Positions 10,470 through 25,289 of a stretch of 64,000 bases of DNA are shown here, in pieces. The stretch comes from an uncultured bacterium. Its GTDB lineage: Bacteria; JAGOEH01. A model generated the notes under the pieces. It searched no databases. It had not been told where the DNA came from and saw only the letters and a program-made list of their open reading frames with translations. A program made the translations under genes and the position numbers. Each line of letters begins with the position of its first letter. Position 1 is the first letter of the stretch. The stretch covers positions 218,204 through 282,203 of the forward strand of contig CAZWDO010000003.1 in the NCBI GenBank assembly GCA_964632485.1, given 5' to 3'.

Positions 10470-10494
10470 GCGCCTCACGCATAGACTGATAAGT

Positions 10495-10526
10495 GGGTCA
10501 GGGCGCGAGCCCTGGCCCCCTTTTTT
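10495..10526 (+). terminator. Rho-independent terminator after the giant gene
   Basis: GC-rich stem gggtcagggc/gccctggccc with a gcga loop, followed by cccccTTTTTT. Confidence 0.5.
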
Positions 10527-10664
10527 CAGTTATTGCCTTGCGATACCTGAAAAAAGGGAAGCACCAAATAAAACCGACCAAGAAAAGGAGGCGCTGCTTC
10601 GGATCTTTTACACACGTCTATTGTTTCAGTTAACCAAAAACGCTCGTCAAAACGGAGGGTTTAA

Positions 10665-12326
10665 ATGAGCTTGAAAAAAACCTTGATTCTTTTCATGATT
10701 CTGACGCTGGGATTGATTGGATCTCTCAGCGCCCAAGTACGTTACATCGATATCCAGGGAACGCAGTCCTTTTATAATTGCGGTCCCGTTGAACCCGGCG
10801 CCATTATTGAAGCCTATAATCAATATGACGTCAAATTGGCTCAAACGATTGTTATTAATGGCGGCCGCTATAGCATCCGTATATTTGAGGCCGATACGAT
10901 TAATCAGATTTTCGGTGTTCAAGAAGGCGAATTGATCAGTCTGGTTATCGATGGAAATGAAGTCATGCCTTATGGAGCATACGAATACCCCATCGTCTAT
11001 GCCAACGAAACCGGCGCCGACGTCATTGATTTTGAGTTTATGGCTCAGGATCCGGATGTTGTAACTAAATCCATCTATTTTATGACTTTTTCCAGTAGCG
11101 CAACCTATCTGAATGGCGGCTTAGTTCCTGTTGGAGCCATTGTTGAAGCGTTTATTCTAGAAACGGGAAAACAGATTGGAATAGATACCGTAAAGGTGAA
11201 TGGCCGATATAATATGAGCGCGTATGCCGATGCGGATATTACTGATTTCTGCGTTGAAGGCGCGCAAGCCGGTGACTCGATTGTTTTCACCATTAATGGC
11301 GCGATGGCCAAAGTGGTTGCCGGAAATGCGACATTTACCAGCGCTATGGATGTACAGACCGTTGATTTGTGCGCCAATGACGGCGTTATCGGCAGCGCGC
11401 AGAGTTGTTCATTTTACGGCGCCGTTTCGGTCAATGGCGTCAATGCCACGGCTGGTACTATTGTTACCGCCTATGATACCGATGGCATTGTTTGCGGACA
11501 ATTTACACTGACCCAGAATGGCCATTACAGTATGCTGGTATTCGGCGATGATGCCGCCACCGATGATGTATGCATGGATGAAGGCGCCCTCGAAGGTGAA
11601 GAGGTGGTGTTCTTTGTCGATGATGAGCCGGCTACCCAGTCTCCAGCCAATGTGACCTGGGTGCGGAATGGTATGTTGGAAGTCAATCTGACCGTCGGAC
11701 AGGCTCAGAGTAACAGTTGGTGCGATTTTATCGGCATCAATTGTAAATTTAACGGCGCTCCGCTTGCCCAGGGAATGACCGTCGCGGCTTATAATGCCCT
11801 TGACGATCAAATGTGCGGCACAGCGACCGTCGGCGCTCTCGGCGCTTTTACTATACGGGTGGTCGGTAAATCCGAGACTCCCGTTGTCGAAGGCCCGGAA
11901 GAAAATGATCCGATCTATTTTATGATTAATAACGAACGCGCTGCGGTTAAATCTCCCTATAACGATACTCTGTTCAGCAATTGGGGCAGTAAGTATGTTA
12001 CTTTGGAATCGCGCGTGGTTCCTGTAGTGGAAGATCAGAAAATCAACAAATCGTTGGAATTGAAACAGAATTATCCGAATCCATTCAACGGAACCACGGT
12101 AATTAGTTTCAATCTGCCTTCCGCGCAGAAAGTTTCCCTCAAAGTGTACAATATGCTGGGAGAGGAAATCTGCGTATTGGCGAACCGAACGATGTCCGCC
12201 GGATCGCATGAAATCGTTTGGGACGGCCAGGATCGTAATGGCCGCAGCGTTCCTTCCAGTATTTATTATTACCAGTTGTTGACGGGTCAGGAAAAACTCG
12301 TTAAACGTATGGTTTATATGAAATAG
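10665..12326 (+). CDS. Secreted T9SS cargo protein (553 aa) with four tandem ~100-aa repeats of an unassigned module and a C-terminal T9SS sorting domain
   Basis: RBS GGAGGG precedes the ATG. The N-terminus is a signal peptide (MSLKKTLILFMILTLGLIGSLSAQ). The module recurs four times with NG[RH]Y..GDD...EGA..GE..F.IN motifs. The C-terminus reads KQNYPNPFNGTTVISFNLP...YYYQL...VYMK. Confidence 0.8.
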   Translation: MSLKKTLILFMILTLGLIGSLSAQVRYIDIQGTQSFYNCGPVEPGAIIEAYNQYDVKLAQTIVINGGRYSIRIFEADTINQIFGVQEGELISLVIDGNEVMPYGAYEYPIVYANETGADVIDFEFMAQDPDVVTKSIYFMTFSSSATYLNGGLVPVGAIVEAFILETGKQIGIDTVKVNGRYNMSAYADADITDFCVEGAQAGDSIVFTINGAMAKVVAGNATFTSAMDVQTVDLCANDGVIGSAQSCSFYGAVSVNGVNATAGTIVTAYDTDGIVCGQFTLTQNGHYSMLVFGDDAATDDVCMDEGALEGEEVVFFVDDEPATQSPANVTWVRNGMLEVNLTVGQAQSNSWCDFIGINCKFNGAPLAQGMTVAAYNALDDQMCGTATVGALGAFTIRVVGKSETPVVEGPEENDPIYFMINNERAAVKSPYNDTLFSNWGSKYVTLESRVVPVVEDQKINKSLELKQNYPNPFNGTTVISFNLPSAQKVSLKVYNMLGEEICVLANRTMSAGSHEIVWDGQDRNGRSVPSSIYYYQLLTGQEKLVKRMVYMK

Positions 12327-12372
12327 TTGCTTTGGAAATCAAAGCAGTCTTTGTTTTAAAAGTCATCATTAC

Positions 12373-12410
12373 GCCGCCTTTATCCCAAACCGGGTAAAGG
12401 CGGCTTTTTT
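12373..12410 (+). terminator. Rho-independent terminator
   Basis: Stem gccgccttta ... taaaggcggc followed by TTTTTT. Confidence 0.55.
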
Positions 12411-12424
12411 GTTTAGTCAGGACC

Positions 12425-12592
12425 GTCATTCCGGGCTCGCGCCCGGAATCCACGGGTCACCTTCTGTCATTCCGGGCTTGACCCGGAATCCAACGATAAA
12501 CGATGGATGCCGGATCGGAGTCCGGCATGACGACGGATGATGGCATTCCGGCTTGACCGCCAGCGCGGCTCGCGCCCGGAATCCACGGGTCA
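12425..12592. repeat. Cluster of at least 4 GC-rich palindromic REP/MITE-like hairpin repeats (GTCATTCC-stem-loop-GGAATCC family)
   Basis: Perfect hairpins are present: gtcATTCCGGGCtcgcGCCCGGAATcc at 12425-12451, gtcATTCCGGGcttgaCCCGGAATcc at 12466-12491 and ATGCCGGAtcggagTCCGGCAT at 12507-12528. The segment ctcgcgcccggaatccacgggtca is duplicated at 12564-12592. Confidence 0.6.
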
Positions 12593-12605
12593 AAAAACCA
12601 ACTAT

Positions 12606-14351
12606 ATGAAAGGAACAAGCATGAGAAGAGTTTTTCAATATCTTCTGCTAATATTAATATCTATTATATCGGTCAGCCAAGCCCAGCAGTCCTGGAGAGT
12701 TGGATTTAAGCTGTATGTATTTATCGATAGCGTCAAAGCGCCCATTCATACAATCGTTGAAGTAAGAGATGTTAATGGTAGTCAATATGATAGTCAAAGT
12801 AAACCCTATGCGTCTCCAATAGTCTCAGAAGTTGAAACATCCTTAGGTACGGCTTTTATTAATGCTCTGGGCGATAATCCGAATACTTCCACAGTACAGG
12901 AAGGCGGATTTACTATTGGCCAAAAAATTTATTTCTATGTCAATAGCAAACGGGCAACAGTTAAGTGTAAGAGCCCGAGTAGTAATTGTGATCTTTATAC
13001 TAACCCTTCTGATCCTACGTTTCCCCCTTCCCAACGGGAGCTGGAAATTTACATTTCTTCCCAGCAACAGACCATTGATACATGTACTTTTACAGGCAGT
13101 GTGTTCATCAACAATGCGCCGGCTCCGGCAGGCTCCCAGATATCGTTTCACGACAAGAACAATCCTACAACATACACCTGGAAAACGATCGCCACTTCGT
13201 CATTGGGCTCATACACGGTAAAAATTGCGGAAGATGATCCGGAAACTACCGGTAAGCAAGGTCCTCTTGATGGAGACACTTTGATTGCGCGAATAAATAA
13301 TTTGTCCGCCGGATCGGATATCCCGCTTATTTTCCGTCCGGGACAAACCCAAATGGTAAGTCTTTCCTATACGGACCCTGACACTTTGCTGTGTACATTT
13401 AATGGAATGATGTGTATGCTGGACGGTCAATTCATAACGTCTCTGGTAACTGTGGAGGCCTTTAATAAGTACAATAAAGTGTGCGGCGCGGCAATCGGGA
13501 CATCCACTCCGGTTCCGGGTTCGTTTACCTTGAATGTTCGCAAAGAAAAAGGCGATAATACCGGTGTCGTAGAAGGCGATTCTGTTTATTTTAAGTTTAA
13601 CGGAGGCAAGGCCCGAACGACAACCATGAGTCCGACGCTTTCTCCATTTTTTTGTTATGAGGATTCCTCATATATGGTGGTTTTGGAAGCAACAACTCCG
13701 CCGCCACCCCAACCGGATACTAATTTTTTTATGCAGTTGTCCGGAACATTGTATGCCGGAGGAGCAGTGGCCAAGCGAAATCTGATTACTGTTAAAACCA
13801 GCGGGAAGACCATGGCTTGTACCACCGCTACCAACGATAACGGACAATTTATCCTGAAAGCCTGGGGCGATAGTCCGTTGACTACCGATGTGGTTGAAGG
13901 CTTTGAGGATGAAGATACCCTGACTTTTTACCATCTTTACAACGGAACAAATCAACCCGTTCAGATGCTCTATCCGACGACGCCCATCACATATGAATTG
14001 TTTGGACTGATTGCGAATATTATGATTTATAACAGTATCGTCGATATAGAAGCAGAAGAAACGCTGATCAAATCTCCAGCTCTGCTTTTATCCAATATTC
14101 CTAATCCGTTCAACCCCGGTACAAATATCCGCTTTAATTTAACAGAACGAACCAATGTGCAGATAACTATATTTAATGTGTTGGGGAATGAAATCAGGCG
14201 ATTGTCAAACCAGCTTTTCCCGGCGGGTGAACACCAGCTCTACTGGAACGGTTGCAGCGATCAGGGTGAACCTCAGTCCGCTGGTATCTACTTTGTCCGT
14301 TTACGGGCAGCGGATATGCAGCATACGCAGAAAATCACACTGATGAAATGA
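12606..14351 (+). CDS. Secreted T9SS cargo protein (~580 aa) with repeated modules related to the upstream neighbour. The start is probably ATG 12606 or 12621, not 12537, which lies inside the repeats.
   Basis: Signal peptide MRRVFQYLLLILISIISVSQAQ. The internal modules carry DNGQFILKAWGD...VVEGFEDEDTLTF-type motifs. The C-terminus reads LSNIPNPFNPGTNIRFNL...GIYFVRL..., a T9SS CTD. GC content is lower than in the flanking genes. Confidence 0.75.
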   Translation: MKGTSMRRVFQYLLLILISIISVSQAQQSWRVGFKLYVFIDSVKAPIHTIVEVRDVNGSQYDSQSKPYASPIVSEVETSLGTAFINALGDNPNTSTVQEGGFTIGQKIYFYVNSKRATVKCKSPSSNCDLYTNPSDPTFPPSQRELEIYISSQQQTIDTCTFTGSVFINNAPAPAGSQISFHDKNNPTTYTWKTIATSSLGSYTVKIAEDDPETTGKQGPLDGDTLIARINNLSAGSDIPLIFRPGQTQMVSLSYTDPDTLLCTFNGMMCMLDGQFITSLVTVEAFNKYNKVCGAAIGTSTPVPGSFTLNVRKEKGDNTGVVEGDSVYFKFNGGKARTTTMSPTLSPFFCYEDSSYMVVLEATTPPPPQPDTNFFMQLSGTLYAGGAVAKRNLITVKTSGKTMACTTATNDNGQFILKAWGDSPLTTDVVEGFEDEDTLTFYHLYNGTNQPVQMLYPTTPITYELFGLIANIMIYNSIVDIEAEETLIKSPALLLSNIPNPFNPGTNIRFNLTERTNVQITIFNVLGNEIRRLSNQLFPAGEHQLYWNGCSDQGEPQSAGIYFVRLRAADMQHTQKITLMK

Positions 14352-14433: not shown

Positions 14434-14721
14434 ATGGATCAGGCTTATGTTTATATATTAGCCAGTAAAAAAAATGGAACATTGTATGTTGGAGTGACCA
14501 GCAATTTGCTCCGACGAATTTGGGAACATAAAAATGATCTTGTAGAAGGATTTACAAAGAACTACAATGTCCATGTGCTGGTTTTTTATGAAATTTTTAG
14601 TGAGATGTATCCGGCAATTACTCGTGAAAAGCAGTTGAAAAAATGGAAAAGAGAATGGAAGATAGGACTAATAGAGTCTATAAATCCGCAATGGAAAGAT
14701 TTGTATGAAAGTCTTTTATAA
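14434..14721 (+). CDS. GIY-YIG nuclease family protein (95 aa, UPF0213/YhbQ-like)
   Basis: YVYILASKKNGTLYVGVTSNLLRRIWEHK followed by ...REKQLKKWKREWKIGLI match the GIY-YIG catalytic core pattern (GIY...YVG...R...E). Confidence 0.8.
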   Translation: MDQAYVYILASKKNGTLYVGVTSNLLRRIWEHKNDLVEGFTKNYNVHVLVFYEIFSEMYPAITREKQLKKWKREWKIGLIESINPQWKDLYESLL

Positions 14722-14724
14722 AAG

Positions 14725-14850
14725 ATGGATGCCGGGTCAAGCCCGGCATGACGGCGGTGGCTCATGGATGCCGGGTCAAGCCCGGCATGACGGCGGTGAC
14801 TCATGGATGCCGGGTCAAGCCCGGCATGACGGCGGTGATTTATGGATGGC
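14725..14850. repeat. Tandem array of ~3.3 copies of a 39-bp unit. Each unit contains the hairpin ATGCCGGGtcaagCCCGGCAT, the reverse-orientation variant of the 12.4 kb REP family.
   Basis: Unit atggatgccgggtcaagcccggcatgacggcggtgRctc at 14725-14763, 14764-14802 and 14803-14841, plus a partial fourth copy. The loop tcaag is the reverse complement of cttga in the 12466 copy. Confidence 0.7.
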
Positions 14851-14892
14851 GCATCATGCGCAATATGACAATACACAGATAAGGTAGGTTTC

Positions 14893-16410
14893 GTGGATCA
14901 GGTGAATTTATTTTCAATGCTTGACTGGATAGTTTTGGGAATTTATGTTATTGGATTAATCGCTTTAGGATGGTGGGTAAGTGGACGTCAAACAGGTGTA
15001 AAAGATTATTTTTTGGGAAGCCGGCAAATACCCTGGTGGGCTGTCGGTATTTCCATCGTTGCCGCTGAGACCAGCGCGCTCACCTTCATCGGCGTCCCCG
15101 CCATGGCATACGCTCAAGGGGGCGATCTTTCCTATGCCCAGATACTCATTGGCTATATCCTGGCGCGCATCATTCTGTCTATCATCATGGTCCCTGCCTA
15201 CTTCAAAGGTGAAATCTATTCTGCCTATCAATTGATCGGCAATCGTTTCGGCAAGGCTCCGCTGATTCTTTGCTCGTTGTTTTTTTTAATCGGCGGATCA
15301 TTGGCTGCGGGTGTGCGTGTCTATGTTACCGCCATACCGCTCCAGCAGATATTAAATGTTGATGTTTCCGTTGCCATTGTTGCGTTTGTTGCCATTGCTT
15401 TGTTTTATAGTATCAAGGGAGGTGTAAAATCAGTGATTTGGACTGATTTTATGCAATTTGCTTTATTTATCGGGGGAGGAATTTTCACCTTGTTTTATGT
15501 TCCTTCGCGCATGCCCGGCTTATCCTGGAGCGCTATATTCAGCCAGGCTGCCGCTGCCGGAAAAATGCGCTGGTTTTATCCTGAATTTTCCTTTCAAGCT
15601 CCGTTTAACATCTGGATGGGATTGATTGGCGCGACAATCGGAGTCATATACAGCCACGGGGTCGATCAATTACTCGTGCAGAAAGTGCTCTGTTGCAGGG
15701 ATGTTCGGGATGGGCGCAAAGCTCTCATTCTTTCAGCGATCATCGTATTTCCTCTATTCATGATTTTTTTGCTGGTAGGAGTTATGTTATTCGTTTATAC
15801 TTCAAATTACCCATCGGCGATAACATTGCCGTTGAACGCCTCGGGGATCCCAAAATGGGATTACATATTTCCCCTGTTTATTGTCGGACAGATGCCGCCG
15901 GTTATCAAGGGCGTATTAATTGCAGCGATATTGGCGGCTGCTTTATCCTCTATCAGCGGCGCTTTGAGCGCATTGTCATCTGTATGGACCATGGAATTCT
16001 ATCGTCGGTATTTAAATACGAAGCGGGACGAGAGAGGTTACCTTAATTATTCGCGCCGGGTGATGGGGGTTTTTAGTATTGTTTTGGCGGCAATTGCTTT
16101 TTTGAGTCAGAATGTGCCATTGGTATTCAATTTGGCCTTTTCTTTAGCTGGACTTACAGCCGGGGCTTTGCTGGGCGCGGTTATACTCTCTTTGTGGGGA
16201 CGTGAACGGCGGGCATGGCCGGTTTTAACCGGGATGGGTGTCTCTTTTGCTTTGATGAGTGTGATTGTGGTGATGAATCTGCAGCATAAGTTGTCGATAT
16301 TCTGGCCCTGGTACCCGATGATCGGTATGCTGGCCATGCTTTCTGTAACGATTTTTTTGCAGAAAATCGCCTGTCAAAAAAGTGCTGTACGGAACAACTC
16401 TGATGATTGA
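14893..16410 (+). CDS. Sodium:solute symporter family (SSF) transporter
   Basis: Multi-pass membrane protein. The N-terminal region FLGSRQIPWWAVGISIVAAETSALTFIGVPAMAY is typical of SSF/SglT/PutP-like carriers. GTG start with a nearby alternative ATG. Confidence 0.8.
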   Translation: MDQVNLFSMLDWIVLGIYVIGLIALGWWVSGRQTGVKDYFLGSRQIPWWAVGISIVAAETSALTFIGVPAMAYAQGGDLSYAQILIGYILARIILSIIMVPAYFKGEIYSAYQLIGNRFGKAPLILCSLFFLIGGSLAAGVRVYVTAIPLQQILNVDVSVAIVAFVAIALFYSIKGGVKSVIWTDFMQFALFIGGGIFTLFYVPSRMPGLSWSAIFSQAAAAGKMRWFYPEFSFQAPFNIWMGLIGATIGVIYSHGVDQLLVQKVLCCRDVRDGRKALILSAIIVFPLFMIFLLVGVMLFVYTSNYPSAITLPLNASGIPKWDYIFPLFIVGQMPPVIKGVLIAAILAAALSSISGALSALSSVWTMEFYRRYLNTKRDERGYLNYSRRVMGVFSIVLAAIAFLSQNVPLVFNLAFSLAGLTAGALLGAVILSLWGRERRAWPVLTGMGVSFALMSVIVVMNLQHKLSIFWPWYPMIGMLAMLSVTIFLQKIACQKSAVRNNSDD

Positions 16411-16458: not shown

Positions 16459-16485
16459 GGCCGAGTAAAATTTTTTTACTCGGCC
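16459..16485. terminator. Perfect 12-bp-stem hairpin downstream of the symporter gene, followed by a partial direct repeat. It is a possible terminator or regulatory element.
   Basis: GGCCGAGTAAAA ttt TTTTACTCGGCC; a ~24-bp segment (aaatttttttactcgRcMattSaac) is repeated directly at ~16500-16525. No T-run follows beyond the stem, so the terminator assignment is tentative. Confidence 0.35.
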
Positions 16486-16810
16486 ATTGAACGCGCAGCA
16501 AATTTTTTTACTCGACAATTCAACAAATTTTTAGTCATAAATATTTTAATTTTGATTTGAGTATGTAAAGGTTTTTTTTCTAAATGAAATTCTATAGTAA
16601 GTTTAGTTGAGTTTTAAAAATTAACTTATTATTAATCAATCACATCGAAATATATTTGTTTATTAAATACACAGTATTTGCCATTTGAGGACTCGCTTTT
16701 GGCAGCAAATTTTTATATATGGACACAAATCAGACAAATTTCACTCCTGAAAGTGGTCAGGAAAAAACTTGAGTTTTAAGTTGGAATGAAAAATGCAATA
16801 TTGTACATGT

Positions 16811-18052
16811 ATGAAAATTAGAAGTCGAATTATACTCAGTTTCCTTCCTTTCCTTCTCCTTAGCGGAACCATGGAGGGACGGGTCTGGTTGGTAGCGGTC
16901 GGTATCGATCGATACCTCGATGCCCGCATCCCGTCTCTCCACTATCCGTCAGCCGATGTAAGCTACGTGCTTGATGTATTAGCTGTAAATCCCAGTCGCG
17001 TGATACCCCGTCAGTTGCTGAATGAGGAAGCGACCTGGCGCGGATTGCGAAGTCTGCTACTAAATACATTGCAACGGCAAATGGTTGATACTGATACCCT
17101 GGTTTTCTATTTTTCAGGGCATGGGCATTTTCTGGAGGACTCGAAATTGGGCAATCATCAATATATAGCGCTCTATGACAGCTCGCCGGATGATATGAGT
17201 ACCTACCTTAATGAAGATGAATTAGCCGGATGGCTTGATCGGATTCACTGCCGTTTGAAAATTCTTATTTTTGATTCCTGCTCACCGATGGACTTTCGAA
17301 TTGAGGCAATTTCAACACTGCCGTTAAATAATCCCCGAAGTTTAAAGAATATGCTTATATGGTCTGCCAATCAGGAGCAGGGAAAAACATGGGAGGTACC
17401 ATTTCTCAACCATTCGGCATTTACGTTTCTTCTGATGCAAGCATGGAAAGGTTACGCCGATGCGGATCGTAACGGTAAAGTCAGCGTTAAAGAGACCCGT
17501 CGTTATCTGGACTCGATGATCCTGAAAATTCCAGGCGCTGCCGAATATCGGCCACAAACCGTCGTCAATGGCGATCCGTTGACATTAAATGATTTTCAGT
17601 GGGTTTATCCGCCGCAGATTATATCACAGGCGATAGTGGTTGCAATCGACAGCAGTCATGCTGTTATTGACATGGGTAGAGAAAATTTGCCATCCAGGAA
17701 TGCGATTTGCTATCATCCCGCCACTCAGCAACGCTATAAATTTTTAGAGATACTGGATTATGCTGCTATGATCGAACGCAACGGCATGTTAAAAATGGGA
17801 GATCGGTTGGAGATTAAAATGCCGGATGCAGGTGGGGAATTGATTCTGGAAGTTAAACCCTGGGCCATGGCCGAATTGAATCAACGCCCCTACGGTTATA
17901 CTCCCCTGCGAATCAAAGATTTAGCTCCCGGCGAGTATAAGTTGCGCTTGACTCATCCGGAACTGGGCGCCCGGGTTCTTAATTTTTCGTTGACGCCTGG
18001 CGAGCAAAAACGACTTTTTATCAATTTTGCTGAACTACCGGAGTCGGAATGA
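16811..18052 (+). CDS. Secreted caspase-like cysteine peptidase (peptidase C14/CHAT-like fold) with a C-terminal PEGA domain
   Basis: Signal peptide MKIRSRIILSFLPFLLLSG. The caspase His/Cys dyad context is present: VGIDRY...YFSGHGH...ILIFDSCS. The C-terminal PYGYTPLRIKDLAPGEYKLRLTHPELG matches the PEGA motif. A 4-bp ATGA overlap joins it to the next gene. Confidence 0.7.
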   Translation: MKIRSRIILSFLPFLLLSGTMEGRVWLVAVGIDRYLDARIPSLHYPSADVSYVLDVLAVNPSRVIPRQLLNEEATWRGLRSLLLNTLQRQMVDTDTLVFYFSGHGHFLEDSKLGNHQYIALYDSSPDDMSTYLNEDELAGWLDRIHCRLKILIFDSCSPMDFRIEAISTLPLNNPRSLKNMLIWSANQEQGKTWEVPFLNHSAFTFLLMQAWKGYADADRNGKVSVKETRRYLDSMILKIPGAAEYRPQTVVNGDPLTLNDFQWVYPPQIISQAIVVAIDSSHAVIDMGRENLPSRNAICYHPATQQRYKFLEILDYAAMIERNGMLKMGDRLEIKMPDAGGELILEVKPWAMAELNQRPYGYTPLRIKDLAPGEYKLRLTHPELGARVLNFSLTPGEQKRLFINFAELPESE

Positions 18053-20073
18053 AAATTCGTTACTTAATTGCCGGTATCATTTTTTCCCTGCTGATGCTAT
18101 TTACGTTTACTCCCTGGTATAGTGAACTTGAATTTTGGTGTTATGATACATTAGCAGGTCATTTATCGCGGACGGTCAGTGATTCAGTGGTATTAATCGC
18201 TGTTACGCGGGATGATTTAGAGGCATTGCAGAGTTATCCGATCGCCGATGACTATTGGGCATTGCTAATTGAGGGATTGGACCGGGTACAGGCCGGCCAG
18301 GTCATTATGGATATGTTTTTTCCTCCCCGTAAGGCGGATGATTGGGATATTTTGGGTTTAACGCTGGCGCGGACCCGTATTCCGGTTATTTTTTCAGTAC
18401 CTTGCGAATGGGTTGAGCAGAATAACCCGTTACCCTACCAACAATGGGTGAAGTATGGTTATAGTAATATCGATTTGTCGGTTGACGGGTATGCCCGTTC
18501 ACTTCCCTCCCGAGGACCCTGTTCACTCCCTGCATTATATCAGGTTGCCCTGGATTTGCCGGATCAATCCCAAGCTGCGAGTTGTTTACTGATTCCCCCC
18601 TATCCGTTTATAGAGGATTACCGTCATTATACACTGAACGAGGCGCTCAATCTGCTGAATCAGCCGGAAAGTTCCGATGCTTTTTCCCATAAGCGTGTTT
18701 TTGTTGGATATCATGTCCCCGGCATTGCCCCGTTTTTTCAAAGTCCTGCCAGCGATCAAGTATGTTCCGGACTTAATCTGCAGGCCAATTACGTAAATGC
18801 AATTCTGACGGGGAGTCGGATCGTCCGGCCTGAATTCAGCATACAACGCTTATGGTTATTTTTTTGGTGGATATTATTGAGCCTGGGGGTGTTATTTTTA
18901 ACTCGTAAACGAAGTATTATTTCTTTTTTAAGCATTTCATTTTTGTTTACGCTGATGATGCTTATAGTTTTATGGACAATGGGAGTTTATTTACCGTTGC
19001 TTTTCCCCATGATTGGCGGTATTTTTCTTTATATCATGTTAGGGTTTACGGTGGCGTTTGAACGGGAAAAAGAATTGCGAACCCGCTTAACGTCACAAAA
19101 CCACATTATCGAGCAAATTATCGCGAATCTGCCCGGTTTAGCAGCCTTGATGAATGAAGAAGGCGTGATTATATATAGAAATGGACGTGAAGGCGTCGGA
19201 ATCAGGCGAGAGGAAATAGATGATCGATATTGGCGGACGATTTTTGCCGGGAAGGAATCTGAAATCTGGTGGCAGCAGAAGGTGAATGGCCGTGATTATC
19301 GAATGATGCTGATTCGACTCTCCGGTCTAAAAGATTTTTGTGGACAAACCCGTGTACTTTTATTATCTTATGATATAACGGAGAATCTGGAATTGGAAAG
19401 TAAACTGAAACAACAGGAACATTTAGCTTCATTGGGTCGAATGGCGGCCAATGTGGCGCATGAAATCCGCAATCCATTGGCCGGTATGGAATTGACTGCC
19501 GCAAGTATCAGGGAAAAGGTATCGGATCGGCCGGAAGTTACTGCGTATGTAAATAATATGGCTTTAGCTCTCAACAGCTTAAACCGATTTGTCAGTGAAT
19601 TTTTAAAATTTAGCCGAAGTTTTCAGCTTAATCCGATTTATTGCGATTTGATACCAATTATCACCGAAGCCCTTGATCAAATTGATCGGGAGGGAAAACC
19701 GATCACAATTGAACGGAACGAGCCGGAACTCTTAATGCTCAGCGCCGATTGTGATCGTTTACGTCAAGTGATGATCAATCTTTTACAAAACAGTGTTCAG
19801 GCCATTCGTAATAATGGAGAAATTCGTATAGAAGCGCGCCAGATTGAGGATAGGGCAGTTATTACTCTGGCGGATAACGGAGAAGGTATAGACCCGGAAG
19901 ACCTGGAGAAAGTGATGGAGCCTTTTTTTACGACTCGGGCGCGCGGGATTGGATTGGGTTTGTCGATTTGCCGACAACTGATCGAGGCGCATGACGGACA
20001 GTTACAGATCGTCAGTCAACGGAATCTGGGAACGAAAGTGACAATTACCTTGCCGATTGGGAGTGAGTTATGA
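18049..20073 (+). CDS. Sensor histidine kinase with an N-terminal CHASE2 extracytoplasmic domain, a TM segment, and HisKA + HATPase_c domains
   Basis: N-terminal TM, then VLIAVTRDDLEALQSYPIADDYWALLIEGL...VIMDMFFP (CHASE2-like). H-box HLASLGRMAANVAHEIRNPL. G-boxes DNGEGIDPE...GIGLGLSICRQL. Confidence 0.8.
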   Translation: MKIRYLIAGIIFSLLMLFTFTPWYSELEFWCYDTLAGHLSRTVSDSVVLIAVTRDDLEALQSYPIADDYWALLIEGLDRVQAGQVIMDMFFPPRKADDWDILGLTLARTRIPVIFSVPCEWVEQNNPLPYQQWVKYGYSNIDLSVDGYARSLPSRGPCSLPALYQVALDLPDQSQAASCLLIPPYPFIEDYRHYTLNEALNLLNQPESSDAFSHKRVFVGYHVPGIAPFFQSPASDQVCSGLNLQANYVNAILTGSRIVRPEFSIQRLWLFFWWILLSLGVLFLTRKRSIISFLSISFLFTLMMLIVLWTMGVYLPLLFPMIGGIFLYIMLGFTVAFEREKELRTRLTSQNHIIEQIIANLPGLAALMNEEGVIIYRNGREGVGIRREEIDDRYWRTIFAGKESEIWWQQKVNGRDYRMMLIRLSGLKDFCGQTRVLLLSYDITENLELESKLKQQEHLASLGRMAANVAHEIRNPLAGMELTAASIREKVSDRPEVTAYVNNMALALNSLNRFVSEFLKFSRSFQLNPIYCDLIPIITEALDQIDREGKPITIERNEPELLMLSADCDRLRQVMINLLQNSVQAIRNNGEIRIEARQIEDRAVITLADNGEGIDPEDLEKVMEPFFTTRARGIGLGLSICRQLIEAHDGQLQIVSQRNLGTKVTITLPIGSEL

Positions 20074-21458
20074 CCGCTCAGATACTGGTTGTGGATGATG
20101 AACTCTATATGCGGGATACGATTGCCCATATATTAATGGATGAAGGGTACCGCGTGATGACTGCCGGTGATGGCGCAGAGGCGCTTAAAGAGATCGAAAA
20201 AACGGCGTTTGATGTCGTTTTAACCGATTTGCGCATGCCGGGTGAGATTAATGGTATGAAACTGCTTGAAATGATAAAGCAACGTGAATTTGAAACAAAA
20301 ACTATTATGATGACGGCTTACAGTAGCGTGGAAACCGCTGTTGACGCTATGCGGTTTGGAGCTTTTGACTATATACAAAAGCCGTTTCAACCGGTGGAAT
20401 TGAAAGTCAGAATCCAGCGGGCAGTGGAATCGATCCGCCGTCAACGGGTGGCGGAGAGTCAATTAGAGGAAGTGGATCAACGTTATACACTCATTGGTTT
20501 ATCACCGGCAATGGATGAAATCCGCCGATCGATCAAAGAGATCAGTCAAACAGATTTTCCTGTGTTGATTACCGGAGAAAGCGGTACGGGGAAGGAGTTG
20601 GTAGCGCGGCAGATTCACTTACAGAGCCGACGGCGGGAACAGCCTTTCGTGGCGCTGAATGTATCCACAATGAATGGTAATCTGGTTGAAAGCGAACTTT
20701 TCGGCCATGAAAAAGGGGCGTTTACCGGCGCTGTGAACCGGCGGATCGGGAAATTTGAACTGGCAACTGATGGCTCGCTTTTTCTTGACGAAATCGGTGA
20801 TTTAGACCTCGAAATGCAAACTAAATTCTTACGTGTATTACAGGAAAAAGAGTTTCATCGTGTGGGAGGCAATCAGTTGATTGTAACAAACACTCGCATT
20901 ATCGCCGCTACATTGCAGGATCTCTCTACCATGATTCAGGAAAATCGGTTTCGAGAAGACTTGTTTTACCGTTTGAATGTATATCCAATTCACATGCCGC
21001 CATTACGCCGACGCAAAGAGGATATCCCATTGCTGTTGGAACATATAGTCCGCAAGCATGAAGGCCAGATACCCCAACCCGTTGAACGCGTGGAGCCGGG
21101 TGTTGTCGATCGATTATGCGCGTATAATTGGCCCGGGAATGTGCGGGAATTTGAAAATGTCATAATTCGTATGCTGATCAGAACTCGGGATGGCGTGTTA
21201 CGGGCAGAGCAGATTCCGGCAGACATCGGTGGAACGGGCTTCATGCTGCAAGAAGGAGATAAGGAAACGTTGGAACAGTTAACCGATCGCTGGTTGGATA
21301 AAGTGATGCAAACAGGGAAAAACAAACCCCTGATGCAGTTCATCGAAAGTCTGATTGCTCAACGGTTTTTTATGCTTCACGGGGAAAAACAACGCGCGGC
21401 CGATTTGTTGGGCATTTCAAAACCGACCTATTTTAAATGGTTAAAGCGAGAATTATGA
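20070..21458 (+). CDS. Sigma-54-dependent response regulator (NtrC family: REC, AAA+ with GAFTGA, HTH)
   Basis: DDELYMRD...TDLRMPG (REC domain), GESGTGKE Walker A, EKGAFTGA sigma54-contact motif, and a C-terminal HTH (LLGISKPTYFKWLK). Confidence 0.85.
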   Translation: MTAQILVVDDELYMRDTIAHILMDEGYRVMTAGDGAEALKEIEKTAFDVVLTDLRMPGEINGMKLLEMIKQREFETKTIMMTAYSSVETAVDAMRFGAFDYIQKPFQPVELKVRIQRAVESIRRQRVAESQLEEVDQRYTLIGLSPAMDEIRRSIKEISQTDFPVLITGESGTGKELVARQIHLQSRRREQPFVALNVSTMNGNLVESELFGHEKGAFTGAVNRRIGKFELATDGSLFLDEIGDLDLEMQTKFLRVLQEKEFHRVGGNQLIVTNTRIIAATLQDLSTMIQENRFREDLFYRLNVYPIHMPPLRRRKEDIPLLLEHIVRKHEGQIPQPVERVEPGVVDRLCAYNWPGNVREFENVIIRMLIRTRDGVLRAEQIPADIGGTGFMLQEGDKETLEQLTDRWLDKVMQTGKNKPLMQFIESLIAQRFFMLHGEKQRAADLLGISKPTYFKWLKREL

Positions 21459-22693
21459 AAAAAATTGCTCTTTGTTTATTCCTTTGCGTAACATCCTTGG
21501 TCGCTCAATCCTGGGTAGCGCGTGTCCAGATTCTAAAAGGACAGGCTTTTTTAAATCGGGAACGGCTTAAAGTGGGACAGGAAATCAACCTTGCGCCCTC
21601 CGATACAATCCGCTGTGGCAAAGCAAGCCGTCTGGACCTTGAATTGACAGGGCTCTGCCACCTATCCCTGAAGGATTCAACAGAATTGGTTTTTCAGGAT
21701 CTCTATTTGCAGTTGCGATTAGGCATCATGCGACTGCGCCTGCCGGCAAAGGCAGAAGGTGAGCAACCATGGATTGTAAAAACCCGACAATTGCAAACAG
21801 CCGCGTTACAAGGCCGTAAATCCAGCGATTTCGCATTGTTAGCCAACGAAGATACAACCATTATTGCTGTTTACCAGGGCGATTCTTTACAGGTTCAACG
21901 TATGGATAATGGAGAAAAAGGTCTGGAAATCCTTTATCTAAAACCCTGGCAGGGATTCAGGCGCTTTTATGACCAGTGGGGCGGTCGCATCAACTGGCGC
22001 AATACACGGCTTGATATTACGATATGGGGCAAAGATTTATTGTATAACGACTGGTTAGAAAAACAATTATTGATAGATGAAGCCGCTTTTAATCTGGATT
22101 CTCTGATTAGCGACGGAAATCTTGATAGTTCTGATTTACATAATGCCTTGATGAAACGCGCTTATTTCGCTCTTTACGATAATGATCAAAAAGTTGCGGA
22201 AGATGCTATCCGGCAGGTATTGACGACAAATCATGAGTATCAGTTACCAGCAGATTTACAGTCTCCGAAATTTAAGGATCTATATTACCAAGTGATGGGC
22301 CAGGTTTCACAAGAGGCGGGATTAACTCCCCGGGCGGTTTCTTTATGGAATCCTCTCGTACCTGGATTGACCCAGCTAAATTGCGGCCAAACTTTGAAAG
22401 GCACTGTACTTTTAGGTACTCAAATGGTATTGCTGGCTGGGTTCTGGTACAATCAGACCCGGCAGGCTGATTATGAAAACCGGATGCGCCTGGCCACAAC
22501 TGCCGCGGATGTTGATCGTTATTATCAACAAAGCTTGCATCATTATGACCGGAAACAGGTTTTCTTTTATACCGCGTTAGGAGTTTATGCGTTCAATCTA
22601 CTGGATGCCTTCCATACCCGACATCGCTGGCAAGCGCAATTGCGGGCTTCACTTGAAAGTATTAACGTTGGAGTAGCCTGGAAGTTCGAATGA
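21455..22693 (+). CDS. FecR-like domain protein with a signal peptide (probably periplasmic or membrane-associated)
   Basis: Start at the ATGA overlap with the regulator stop. Signal MKKIALCLFLCVTSLVAQ. The beta-sandwich-like region (SRLDLELTGLCHLSLKDSTELVF...WIVKTRQLQTAAL...IIAVYQGDSLQV) resembles the FecR fold. Hydrophobic C-terminal segments are present. Confidence 0.45.
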   Translation: MKKIALCLFLCVTSLVAQSWVARVQILKGQAFLNRERLKVGQEINLAPSDTIRCGKASRLDLELTGLCHLSLKDSTELVFQDLYLQLRLGIMRLRLPAKAEGEQPWIVKTRQLQTAALQGRKSSDFALLANEDTTIIAVYQGDSLQVQRMDNGEKGLEILYLKPWQGFRRFYDQWGGRINWRNTRLDITIWGKDLLYNDWLEKQLLIDEAAFNLDSLISDGNLDSSDLHNALMKRAYFALYDNDQKVAEDAIRQVLTTNHEYQLPADLQSPKFKDLYYQVMGQVSQEAGLTPRAVSLWNPLVPGLTQLNCGQTLKGTVLLGTQMVLLAGFWYNQTRQADYENRMRLATTAADVDRYYQQSLHHYDRKQVFFYTALGVYAFNLLDAFHTRHRWQAQLRASLESINVGVAWKFE

Positions 22694-22703
22694 CCTTTCC
22701 CCA

Positions 22704-23753
22704 ATGGAATCCCGGATGATGACTAATAGATTTTGGATATTAATTATAGAATTGGCAATAATCATCGGATATAGTGTTTCCTGTTTTAATAAACCGATCA
22801 AACCGGACTTGCCGCCTGAGATTGTATGGTTTCAACCGTCCGATGGCATGAGCGTCATTGAGGGATCAACTGTGGTTTTTGAACTTAAAGGTCAGGATGA
22901 CCGTCGATTGGAGATGATTAAACTTTATTTGGATGGAACAATCGTTGATTCGGTTTTTAGTGATTCAATTCGGTATTCCTGGGTGACGACCGGGGCTGAG
23001 GGAGTGCATTCATGGTATTTTTATTTGCGTGATACTCATGATCAGATTATACAGACCGAATTGGCTTTGCTAACGGTGCAACCTTTTTCTTTTCAAGTGA
23101 TGGCGCCGGACAATGATTATTTTATAGTGGATACCCTTTCTTTATGGTTGAGATGCGAGAATTGGCAATTGGGGGGGCAATTGAGTGTCCTGGGAAATGA
23201 AATTCAACTTAATGAACCCTTCGATCTTCATAAGAAATTCCAAATTTCTTTAGATCAATTTTCTTCCGGAGCATACAATACAATGATTCGCATTTTGGAT
23301 AACCGGCAACAGCTATTAACAGAACAGGAATACACATTAATAAAAGTTAATGATGCCGTCCTGTCGTTTCCCGACACCCTGTTGGCCCGGGAACCGTACA
23401 ATTTTGTTTTACCGTTAAGAATTCAGGCGGTCCAACGACTTTATTCGCTGGATTTTAAAGTTTTATTTTACAAAGATGTCATTGTCATTGACAGTGTTAA
23501 ACCTGAGGGCGTGACTTCACAATACCTGGCATTTTCAACTACGCTGCTGAGCTCTCCGGAGCAAATGTCGGTTACATTTCGGGCGAAACCGGGGCAATTT
23601 GTTGATGGCGACCATCAGTTGTTTAAGTTTTTTGTCCATCGGGGCGCGCAATCCTACAGTGATCGTGTGAGTTTATTAAAATTTACCGGTATTTTGGGAA
23701 ATGGCGGCGCTTTATCTGTTTATGGCAACAACTGCCGAATCTGGTTTGAATAG
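22704..23753 (+). CDS. Membrane-anchored hypothetical protein (N-terminal TM, probably extracytoplasmic Ig-like beta domains)
   Basis: N-terminal hydrophobic anchor FWILIIELAIIIGYSV. The remainder is beta-rich. No recognisable catalytic motif. Confidence 0.45.
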   Translation: MESRMMTNRFWILIIELAIIIGYSVSCFNKPIKPDLPPEIVWFQPSDGMSVIEGSTVVFELKGQDDRRLEMIKLYLDGTIVDSVFSDSIRYSWVTTGAEGVHSWYFYLRDTHDQIIQTELALLTVQPFSFQVMAPDNDYFIVDTLSLWLRCENWQLGGQLSVLGNEIQLNEPFDLHKKFQISLDQFSSGAYNTMIRILDNRQQLLTEQEYTLIKVNDAVLSFPDTLLAREPYNFVLPLRIQAVQRLYSLDFKVLFYKDVIVIDSVKPEGVTSQYLAFSTTLLSSPEQMSVTFRAKPGQFVDGDHQLFKFFVHRGAQSYSDRVSLLKFTGILGNGGALSVYGNNCRIWFE

Positions 23754-23768
23754 ATTAGGGAGAGAATT

Positions 23769-25289
23769 ATGCAACGAATGATTTACACAGTTATATTTTT
23801 AGGTTTTATATTAGCAATGAGCCATCGCGCATCTACGATTTTAGTGGGGCCGGGCGGAGATATACAAAGCGCGATTGATCAATCGGTATGGGGCGATACG
23901 GTTTTATTAGAAAAGGATTTCCGCATTGTTCCTTCCTTGAGATTAAAAGATGGCGTCATTTTGCGTGGAATCAGAAAAGATAGTTGTATTTTAAATTTTG
24001 GCGGGGATGATTATTTCATCAGCGTGGAAAATACCAGTCGCAATGTTATTGAAAATTTAACAATTATCAGCATAGGCGTCTTGCCGAAATCGATGGTCTA
24101 TACAGATCAATGTCGGTATTTGAGTCTAAAAAACGTGGAGTTCCAGGGTGGAAATCTGTCAGTTTTCGCGAGGGGTAGTTATCTTTATATTGATAACGTT
24201 TTATTTTCCAATCGCCAGACAAATCTTGAATTGGAACTCAGCGGCGGGATTATTCGAAATTCCCGTTTTATGAGTGATAATAGCGGATTAATTATTAAAG
24301 GAAACGTTCGCGATTCATTGATTGTTGAAAATAATCGGTTTGAAACGGGGAAATCCATTGTATATTGTGAGAATGCGGGAAATGGATTACGCTTTCTTCA
24401 TAATGAATTTTCAGCGCCATCAGCGAATATGATGATCAATGCGATCGGCAGTTCGCTGGAGCTGGCATTCAATCGAATCCTGTTACAAACTAACGCGACG
24501 GGGATAGCGCTTTCCGGTTCATCTATGGCATATTTTCATCATAATGTTTTCCTCAGCGAGCAAAGCGGGAGCGCCATTGCGGCTGTCAACTGCGAAGCAG
24601 TTCTCTGCCATAACAATACATTTTTAAATTTTAGCAATGTATTGGCCGGATATGAATCGTATCTTTCTTTTGTCAATAATATTTGCGCCAATACATCGCT
24701 CATTGGCGATACGGCCATCCAATTGGTGAGTTCTAAAAAAAATGTGGTTCGATATAATGATTTTTGGGGATTTGAAGCAGATGTGAGTGGAACACTTGAC
24801 ACAGCATTATCAGAACATAATATATTTGCTGATCCTTATTTTATCAGCCAGGATTTTTCCGATACGCTCAATTTTTTATGTCTGGATTGTCAATCCCCCT
24901 GTATAGATAGCGGGGATCCAGCATTTGATGCTGGAAAAGAGCCGGATAATAGTATAATTGACATGGGATTTACCGGGAATACCGTGAGGGGCTGCGGTTA
25001 TAAAGCCGTCTCGGTCGATGAAGATAGCAGACAGCCGGAGGAAGATTTTAAATTAGCAGTTTATCCGCTTCCAGTTGACGACCATATTACCATCCGCTGG
25101 GGGGTTGATGAATTTGCAAGAGAAGTTTCGATTTATAATTTAATAGGGGAACGTGTGGCATGTTTTCCAGTTTCACCAGGATCAGTAAATTTTAGCTTTA
25201 ACTGTTCCAGGTTTCCTGCCGGGTGTTATTTGATCAGAGTGTTATCCGGCGGAAAAGCGCTGTATGCCAGGTTTATGATTTGCCGGTAG
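23769..25289 (+). CDS. Right-handed parallel beta-helix repeat protein with a C-terminal T9SS sorting domain
   Basis: Signal peptide. Repeated N-rich turns (NNVFLSE..., HNNTFLNFSN..., VNNICANTS...) typical of PbH1/pectin-lyase-like folds. The C-terminus reads KLAVYPLPVDDHITIRW...SIYNLIGERV...GCYLIRV, a T9SS CTD. Confidence 0.7.
   Translation: MQRMIYTVIFLGFILAMSHRASTILVGPGGDIQSAIDQSVWGDTVLLEKDFRIVPSLRLKDGVILRGIRKDSCILNFGGDDYFISVENTSRNVIENLTIISIGVLPKSMVYTDQCRYLSLKNVEFQGGNLSVFARGSYLYIDNVLFSNRQTNLELELSGGIIRNSRFMSDNSGLIIKGNVRDSLIVENNRFETGKSIVYCENAGNGLRFLHNEFSAPSANMMINAIGSSLELAFNRILLQTNATGIALSGSSMAYFHHNVFLSEQSGSAIAAVNCEAVLCHNNTFLNFSNVLAGYESYLSFVNNICANTSLIGDTAIQLVSSKKNVVRYNDFWGFEADVSGTLDTALSEHNIFADPYFISQDFSDTLNFLCLDCQSPCIDSGDPAFDAGKEPDNSIIDMGFTGNTVRGCGYKAVSVDEDSRQPEEDFKLAVYPLPVDDHITIRWGVDEFAREVSIYNLIGERVACFPVSPGSVNFSFNCSRFPAGCYLIRVLSGGKALYARFMICR

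Follow-up and report, generated by a model that had tools for sequence, protein, structure and literature searches.

A caspase-fold protein with an export signal, encoded in a conserved six-gene module together with a CHASE2 sensor histidine kinase

The subject of this analysis is a stretch of 64,000 nucleotides (hereafter, the window) of contig CAZWDO010000003.1, assembly GCA_964632485.1, from an uncultured bacterium, and in particular a forward-strand gene within it that ends at position 18052. Its 413-residue product is made up of a Sec-type signal, a caspase-fold domain, a β-domain of 90 residues that is confined to this family, and a PEGA domain. The gene opens a conserved set of six genes, the second of which encodes a sensor histidine kinase with a CHASE2 domain, and it is preceded by a conserved promoter-like motif. 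We lean, if only slightly, towards the view that an exported and active caspase-type protease assists the CHASE2 two-component system from the periplasm, within a self-activating sigma-54 operon. The enzyme is of an ordinary type, and the interest lies in the conserved coupling of protease and CHASE2 kinase.

The open reading frame (ORF) runs from 16793 or 16811 to 18052 on the plus strand, and the Met codon at 16811, from which residues are numbered here, yields the 413-residue protein. This start is better supported than that of the longest ORF because the ATG at 16793 falls within the promoter-like motif, in its −12 element. The nearest named relative, with the annotation of a caspase family protein, comes from a metagenome-assembled genome (MAG) of Candidatus Delongbacteria. 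Profiles, alignments, and AlphaFold2 (AF2) modeling combined with Foldseek identify residues 24–240 (16880..17530, plus strand) as a caspase-fold catalytic domain of the Peptidase C14, orthocaspase-like type. The three motifs on which the original prediction was based, VGIDRY (residues 30–35), YFSGHGH, and IFDSCS, are all present in the ORF; the second holds His104 (codon CAT, 17120–17122) and the third Cys157 (codon TGC, 17279–17281). The Pfam alignment that had been proposed as a check returns Peptidase_C14 (PF00656) at 27.8 bits (E 2.5e-6), above the curated cut-off of 21.4, and the orthologues score between 22.7 and 47.9 bits. Among 1.84 billion representative proteins, 6798 match the window caspase at E ≤ 1e-3.

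Alignment of the window protein with 15 homologues, and then also with five full-length relatives, places His104 and Cys157 in the SGHG and DxC columns. Both residues, together with Gly103, Gly105, Asp49, and Asp155, are invariant in the six-member family and are invariant or at least 90% conserved among 118 homologues. Against the PDB the alignment profile retrieves the metacaspases AtMC4 (6w8s), Yca1 (4f6o), and TbMCA2 (4af8) at E values from 5e-19 to 1e-16, and the SGHG and DxC columns of the family profile fall on the SGHG and DSCHSG of these three structures. The claim that the caspase His and Cys motifs occur in canonical order is thus borne out, both residues lying in the catalytic columns of solved metacaspases. 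In the profile alignment Asp49 (16955–16957, plus strand) and Asp155 (17273–17275, plus strand), which lie within the caspase domain, correspond to Asp95 and Asp211 of TbMCA2; two conserved aspartates in the specificity pocket are a known orthocaspase signature (PMC6426788). Since these two residues correspond to aspartates in the pocket of metacaspases and orthocaspases, the S1 pocket is expected to be acidic, and cleavage after Arg or Lys is predicted.

Modeling of the protein by AF2 with the six-member family alignment gave a mean predicted local distance difference test (pLDDT) value of 82 and a predicted template modeling (pTM) score of 0.73, with most of the caspase core at pLDDT 80–95. 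The structural comparison suggested in the original prediction places the protein with the metacaspases, the caspases, and MALT1: Foldseek searches of the PDB with the AF2 model return MALT1, GSU0716, metacaspases including Yca1, and caspases 1 and 9 at E values from 1e-12 to 1e-7. The top match, the paracaspase MALT1 (caspase-Ig3; E ~1e-12), likewise has a caspase domain followed by a β-sandwich domain; unlike the window protein it is eukaryotic and cytoplasmic, with 10–14% sequence identity, and only the caspase core is comparable because the full-length root-mean-square deviation is ~17 Å. With the prokaryotic orthocaspases of Peptidase C14 (Microcystis MaOC1; GSU0716, PDB 3bij) the window protein shares the caspase fold, the SGHG/DxC dyad, and the two pocket aspartates. 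It differs from them in possessing a Sec signal, a family-specific middle domain, and a PEGA domain, in reading SPM rather than HSG after the catalytic Cys, and in being always coupled to a CHASE2 kinase gene.

The conserved residues and the model together predict a catalytically competent, orthocaspase-type protease with a His104/Cys157 dyad. The residues following Cys157 are SPM in the window protein and FPP or SSI in its relatives, where HSG or YSG is usual, and such atypical sequences (SPM or FPP) would suit a pseudo-protease, a non-catalytic scaffold that only binds the CHASE2 domain or its ligand. There is precedent for this, as pseudo-orthocaspases are known (PMC6426788). The known pseudo-variants, however, replace the His and the Cys, whereas here the dyad, the glycines on either side of the His, and both pocket aspartates are retained in all six family members, and we regard the scaffold explanation as quite improbable. 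A second alternative concerns the best NCBIfam match, NF047832, which is named "caspase, EACC1-associated type" (E 1.1e-13) and would point to a cytoplasmic caspase that belongs to the EACC-type conflict systems and acts in cell death or against phages. The score of 51.2 bits is far below the cut-off of 140, Pfam and NCBIfam reveal no EACC, NTPase, TIR, or toxin partner in the locus, and the protein carries an export signal; this explanation is scarcely credible. A defence-system reading was also examined with PADLOC, which gave the caspase no match, and was rejected.

The signal sequence (MKIRSRIILSFLPFLLLSGTMEG; residues 1–23; 16811..16879, plus strand) has three basic residues, an 11-residue hydrophobic core, and a polar end. 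By composition and hydropathy these three segments, MKIRSR, IILSFLPFLLL, and SGTMEG, follow the charged, hydrophobic, and polar order of a Sec signal, and the core is too short to score as a transmembrane helix of 19 residues. The nearest small homologues possess a classical signal peptide (...ANA|RVYLVSVGI), which aligns with MEG|RVWLVAVGI in the window protein; the two signals end at the same point of the alignment, just before the first β-strand. The AF2 model leaves residues 1–21 unstructured or at low pLDDT. Export of the protein is well supported, and it is presumably located in the periplasm. A cleavable signal peptide had been proposed; the export signal itself holds, aligned as it is with the signal peptides of homologues, and its cleavage is presumed.

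Such export is not unusual among the homologues, contrary to what the original prediction had asserted. Of the 132 complete, Met-starting homologues among the top 148, approximately 100 have a hydrophobic signal at the N-terminus. Small secreted caspases of ~245 residues that stand alone are numerous among the homologues, and prokaryotic caspase homologues that are likely exported were noted as early as 2012 (PMC3501461).

Between helices 203–215 and 226–237 of the AF2 model lies a loop, DADRNGKVSVKE (residues 217–228; 17459..17494, plus strand), that follows the EF-hand loop pattern. Its Asp217 and Glu228 are invariant in the six-member family, and the loop columns are conserved among the 118 homologues. 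The strict PROSITE EF-hand pattern is found in 88 of 148 homologues and a looser pattern in 118 of the 148, while the Pfam EF-hand models match five or six of 45. Across this stretch the family profile also matches calcium-binding proteins in the PDB, and some archaeal orthocaspases have EF-hand motifs (PMC6426788). It is a reasonable supposition from these sequences that the loop probably binds Ca2+ in this caspase clade. In most of the bacterial and archaeal clade (homologues P0044–P0191) the loop between the last two caspase helices reads AD-x-[DN]-x-[DN]-G-x-[VI]-x-x-x-E.

The remainder of the protein consists of two β-rich domains. The middle domain (residues 246–338; 17546..17824, plus strand) is modeled by AF2 at pLDDT ~73–91, mostly 85–91, with the family alignment and below 50 with a shallower one. 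It has no sequence match in Pfam or the PDB, and a hidden Markov model (HMM) of this domain, run against 66 loci, matches family members only. The PEGA domain (residues 340–405; 17828..18025, plus strand), recognized by Pfam and phmmer, is modeled with seven β-strands at pLDDT ~90. Residues 337–381 match P0155, a PEGA-only protein with nine PEGA repeats (566 bits on PF08308), by phmmer at E 3.6e-14 in the 1.84 billion proteins. The C-terminal PEGA domain of the original prediction is upheld by this match and by four of the five orthologues, which exceed the Pfam cut-off of 20.8 (27.6, 21.7, 26.5, and 28.9 bits; the fifth scores 17.8); on PF08308 itself the window protein falls just short at 20.0 bits. 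The "PxGxY" pattern that was cited for it is only approximate, as the sequence reads APGEYKLRLTHPELG, with KPWAM at the name-giving PEGA position. Nor are fusions of caspase and PEGA uncommon, as had been stated: PEGA is present in 14 of 45 selected multi-domain homologues, one of the 14 being P0155, and the combination recurs in bacteria and archaea, with PEGA-like repeats in or beside caspases of Methanomicrobiales, Armatimonadetes, and Poribacteria. A literature search on PEGA with caspase returned nothing relevant.

Among the 6798 caspase matches, only four other 50%-identity clusters (P0044–P0047, at 31–38% identity) align over the full length of the window protein. Together with P0002 and the window they represent six distinct loci (the window, L001, L002, L004, L005, and L006/L059) in Candidatus Delongbacteria-like MAGs. 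When 185,579 species-representative genomes were scanned with the family alignment, just two true members of the family emerged; scanning metagenomes with the CHASE2 alignment added one further locus of the same family (L059), and tblastn of the CHASE2 domain against plasmids gave no match. In all six loci the gene directly downstream of the caspase gene encodes a CHASE2 histidine kinase, and the two overlap by 1–26 nt; a gene for a sigma-54 response regulator follows the kinase gene wherever the contig continues. The complete order of caspase, CHASE2 kinase, sigma-54 response regulator, FecR-like protein, Ig-like protein, and a β-helix protein with the C-terminal tail of the type IX secretion system (T9SS) is found in the window, L002, and L006. 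The module is delimited to these six genes because the upstream neighbours differ in L006, where they are the unrelated Lon and PhoH genes. Its proteins diverge in parallel, five of them at 28–41% identity and the regulator at 52–61%. No CHASE2 neighbour was found at any of 49 generic caspase loci from reference genomes, for which the CHASE2 HMM was family-derived, such that distant CHASE2 domains may escape it; the caspase-PEGA proteins P0115 and P0025 have no CHASE2 neighbour either.

This invariant, overlapping gene order backs the functional tie to the CHASE2 kinase that the original prediction had hinted at. It also bears on the possibility that the protein is a general exported protease, engaged in scavenging or envelope housekeeping and linked to the two-component system through regulation only. 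The many small stand-alone secreted caspases among the homologues would be compatible with such a role, as would the presence of PEGA in many unrelated exported proteins (P0155). Against it, the same kinase partner is encoded by an overlapping gene in every member of a family whose caspases share 31–38% identity, and the restriction of the middle domain to this family indicates a dedicated partner; we consider a general protease improbable.

The start of the kinase gene (18049..20073, plus strand) overlaps the stop codon of the caspase gene (ATGA), and its product matches CHASE2 (PF05226) at 85.9 bits, HisKA at 43.2, and HATPase_c at 93.1. A first transmembrane segment (residues 3–21) is followed by the 245-residue CHASE2 domain (22–266), transmembrane segments 2–4 (267–335), the H-box HEIRNP at residue 471, and HATPase_c. 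The CHASE2 domain is predicted to be periplasmic because it is placed between the first and the remaining transmembrane segments, and with this topology the sensor domain would share a compartment with the exported protease. The next gene (20070..21458, plus strand) encodes an NtrC-type, sigma-54-dependent response regulator (Sigma54_activat 229 bits, Response_reg 107 bits; ntrC/AtoC/ZraR-like in NCBIfam), comprising a receiver domain, an AAA+ domain with GAFTGA at residue 216, and a helix-turn-helix domain.

The fourth gene (21455..22693, plus strand) specifies a secreted protein with a weakly FecR-like N-terminal β-domain and a C-terminal region resembling DUF5683 and LB_137. FecR (PF04773; cut-off 24) scores 15.0 and 16.8 bits in two of three orthologues and gives no match in the third; DUF5683 scores 15.4 bits, and the NCBIfam model LB_137 matches at E 8.5e-8, far under its cut-off. 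The protein has no PDB match and retrieved only itself in a word-indexed protein search, and its gene is kept in place in L001 (where it is cut by the contig end), L002, and L006. The longest ORF would start at 21437 (MVKARIMKK...); the start at 21455, which overlaps the regulator stop codon by 4 nt, is more likely since the orthologues begin at the corresponding MKK. There follow a gene for a membrane-anchored or secreted Ig-like protein (22704..23753, plus strand; Big_7 25.1 bits, hydrophobic residues 10–28), also found in L002 and L006, and the last gene of the module (23769..25289, plus strand), which is kept in L002 and L006 and encodes a β-helix protein, weakly NosD-like in NCBIfam, with a T9SS C-terminal sorting domain (Por_Secre_tail, 32 bits).

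Thirteen nucleotides before the ATG at 16811 is a promoter-like motif of the sigma-54 −24/−12 type, TGGAATGAAAAATGCA (16782..16797, plus strand), in the GG-N10-GC register. A GG-N10-GC motif is located 12–13 nt before the signal-peptide ATG in all six loci, of which the proteins are just 31–38% identical; in the other loci it reads nGGnAT-N6-TGCA (positions 3914 in L001, 7942 in L002, 1885 in L004, 541 in L005, and 7973 in L006). Its conservation implies that the caspase operon has a near-leaderless transcript that would be sigma-54-dependent. The probable activator of the operon is the NtrC-type protein that it encodes itself, in which GAFTGA is present. The motif further implies that several database starts are wrong, that of P0001 being 19 nt too early, those of P0044 and the 380-residue NCBI version of P0002 late, and those of P0045 and P0046 early.

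Upstream of the motif is a perfect palindrome, GAGTAAA-N5-TTTACTC (16463..16481), within the larger GGCCGAGTAAAA/TTTTACTCGGCC; a further TTTACTC half-site occurs at ~16507. It is the sole match in the 64-kb window even when three mismatches are allowed. In L001 and L002 an exact copy lies ~100 nt ahead of the caspase start, and L005 has one with two mismatches; none was found upstream of the caspase gene in L004 or L006. It may be a binding site for the sigma-54 activator of the operon, and could equally be, in the window, the terminator hairpin of the symporter gene upstream. Exact or near-exact copies also occur inside the kinase coding region of L001 (5669–5687), L002 (9724–9742), and L005 (2274–2292), at the same codon position (approximately residues 172–180, with a GKENLL-like peptide in L001 and L002), and may have arisen by chance from AT-rich codons or represent an internal site of regulation.

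As the first gene of this operon, the caspase gene would supply the periplasm with a protease that acts as an accessory of the CHASE2 kinase, and proteolysis would set the activity of the kinase. The substrate could be the sensor domain of the kinase, the co-encoded secreted FecR-like protein, or an envelope protein of which a fragment is read by the sensor. The processing of a CHASE2 ligand, as put forward in the original prediction, is likewise a hypothesis. The kinase would phosphorylate the NtrC-type activator, which would act at the sigma-54-type promoter directly upstream of the caspase gene, and this autoregulatory loop would also express the Ig-like and the T9SS-exported β-helix proteins. 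Docking of the protease, either to its partner or to the envelope, may be the task of the PEGA and middle domains. The sequences themselves establish the domain identities, the conservation of catalytic and pocket residues, the export signal, the invariant coupling of the genes, and the conserved promoter motif; we infer the physical partnership of protease and kinase, the substrate, the Ca2+ dependence, and the autoregulation.

Precedents exist for parts of this scheme. In ZraP-ZraSR, which is sigma-54-dependent and autoregulated, and in CpxP-DegP-CpxA, the kinase is modulated by an accessory protein or a protease of the periplasm. Among the models of NCBIfam, those of AtoS/ZraS and NtrC/AtoC/ZraR give the best scores with the kinase core and the regulator of the window; the likeness is one of working principle, as the accessory proteins of those systems are not homologous to the caspase. 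The "BiofilmReg" operon of Burkholderiales and Pseudomonas aeruginosa similarly combines a CHASE2 kinase, a secreted FecR-type accessory, and a response regulator, and in Burkholderiales genes with FecR domains adjoin those of CHASE2 kinases (PMC5192318). That operon is without a protease, and its regulator is of the CreB/OmpR type, whereas the regulator here is sigma-54-dependent and the FecR similarity is weak. Proteins in which caspase and CHASE2 are fused also exist (PMC3501461, PMC2853523, PMC8195603); those such as the Trichodesmium erythraeum metacaspase and EACC2-caspase join the same two domain types in an N-to-C order that equals the 5′-to-3′ order found here. In the fusions, however, the caspase is predicted to be cytoplasmic and to be the output of CHASE2, whereas the present module has a separate, exported caspase on the side of the sensor, with a histidine kinase as the output. 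In the literature searched, no description of a caspase-fold protease as a kinase accessory was found, and nothing relevant on CHASE2 together with a CHAT domain.

Several observations tell against a protease that serves the sensor. The family is tiny, comprising six distinct loci that all derive from metagenomes. The SPM after Cys157 is without the Gly of the usual DxCxxG, and activity could be atypical. The fourth gene is assigned to FecR under the Pfam cut-off, and the fusion caspases, given their cytoplasmic prediction and different topology, lend only indirect support. The promoter-like motif is not enriched in the window (three found versus 2.9 expected), and its significance for this reason rests on its conserved position. 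Finally, the retention of gene order is also compatible with a co-regulated output enzyme.

This last point leads to the main rival, according to which the CHASE2 system senses alone, perhaps with the FecR-like protein, and the caspase is an output effector that matures, trims, or turns over surface proteins encoded nearby, namely the T9SS-tailed β-helix protein, the Ig-like protein, and the upstream T9SS cargos. The T9SS-tailed protein does end the operon in the window, L002, and L006, and T9SS cargo genes lie upstream, three in the window and two or three in L001 and L002. T9SS cargo is processed by PorU, itself a clan CD (caspase-fold) peptidase. Yet removal of the T9SS C-terminal domain takes place at the cell surface, and the caspase protein, which has no such domain, should stay in the periplasm. 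It matches C14, and neither C25, the PorU family, nor Por_Secre_tail is matched in it by Pfam at E ≤ 0.1. Moreover, the upstream cargos are not conserved neighbours, Lon and PhoH taking their place in L006, and overlapping, first-position coupling to a kinase gene in six of six loci is more typical of a sensor accessory than of an output gene. We consider the output-effector explanation possible though unlikely. The processing of T9SS cargo, which the original prediction had also entertained, is in particular a weaker alternative, because the caspase protein lacks a T9SS C-terminal domain and belongs to a type other than PorU/C25.

The signals recognised by CHASE2 domains are unknown according to the Pfam description quoted in PMC5192318, and no identified CHASE2 signal was found in the literature searched. 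The coupling described here yields a hypothesis that could be tested by reconstitution, namely that proteolysis, possibly gated by Ca2+, controls a CHASE2 sensor. In its most specific and speculative form, which we put forward tentatively and regard as doubtful, the CHASE2 receptors of this lineage would be protease-gated, a Ca2+-dependent periplasmic caspase cutting the sensor or its FecR-like partner and so switching the kinase on. If true, bacteria would possess a counterpart of protease-activated receptors, and a first insight into the mechanism of CHASE2 activation would be gained. A role in envelope signalling would also be added to those of the bacterial caspase homologues, which are usually discussed for cell death and defence. 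The two other exported caspases sampled, P0006 and P0013, are also encoded in signalling clusters, which hints at a wider role. The gene for P0006, a caspase with a weak match to an outer-membrane protein β-barrel (L066, 2696–5551), comes after a gene for an extracytoplasmic function sigma factor and an unannotated gene of 210 codons; that for P0013 (246 residues; L065, 1–9371) is situated amid Ser/Thr kinase, FHA, and PP2C genes.

Upstream of the module, positions 72–14351 of the window contain an ORF of 3465 residues with a T9SS-type C-terminal domain, followed by genes for two paralogous T9SS cargo proteins of ~550–600 residues with FlgD_ig and Por_Secre_tail matches. The cargo genes of this region are syntenic with L002, and the two smaller ones with L001; L006 does not share them. 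Between the cargo genes and the caspase operon (14434–16410) are genes for a 95-residue protein with a GIY-YIG nuclease domain and for a sodium:solute symporter. This stretch looks like an insertion because in L001 and L002 the caspase gene comes immediately after the cargo genes. Between the GIY-YIG and symporter genes, a 39-bp unit is repeated 3.2 times at 96% identity (14725–14869), and its minus strand reads as HRRHAGLDPASMS repeats.

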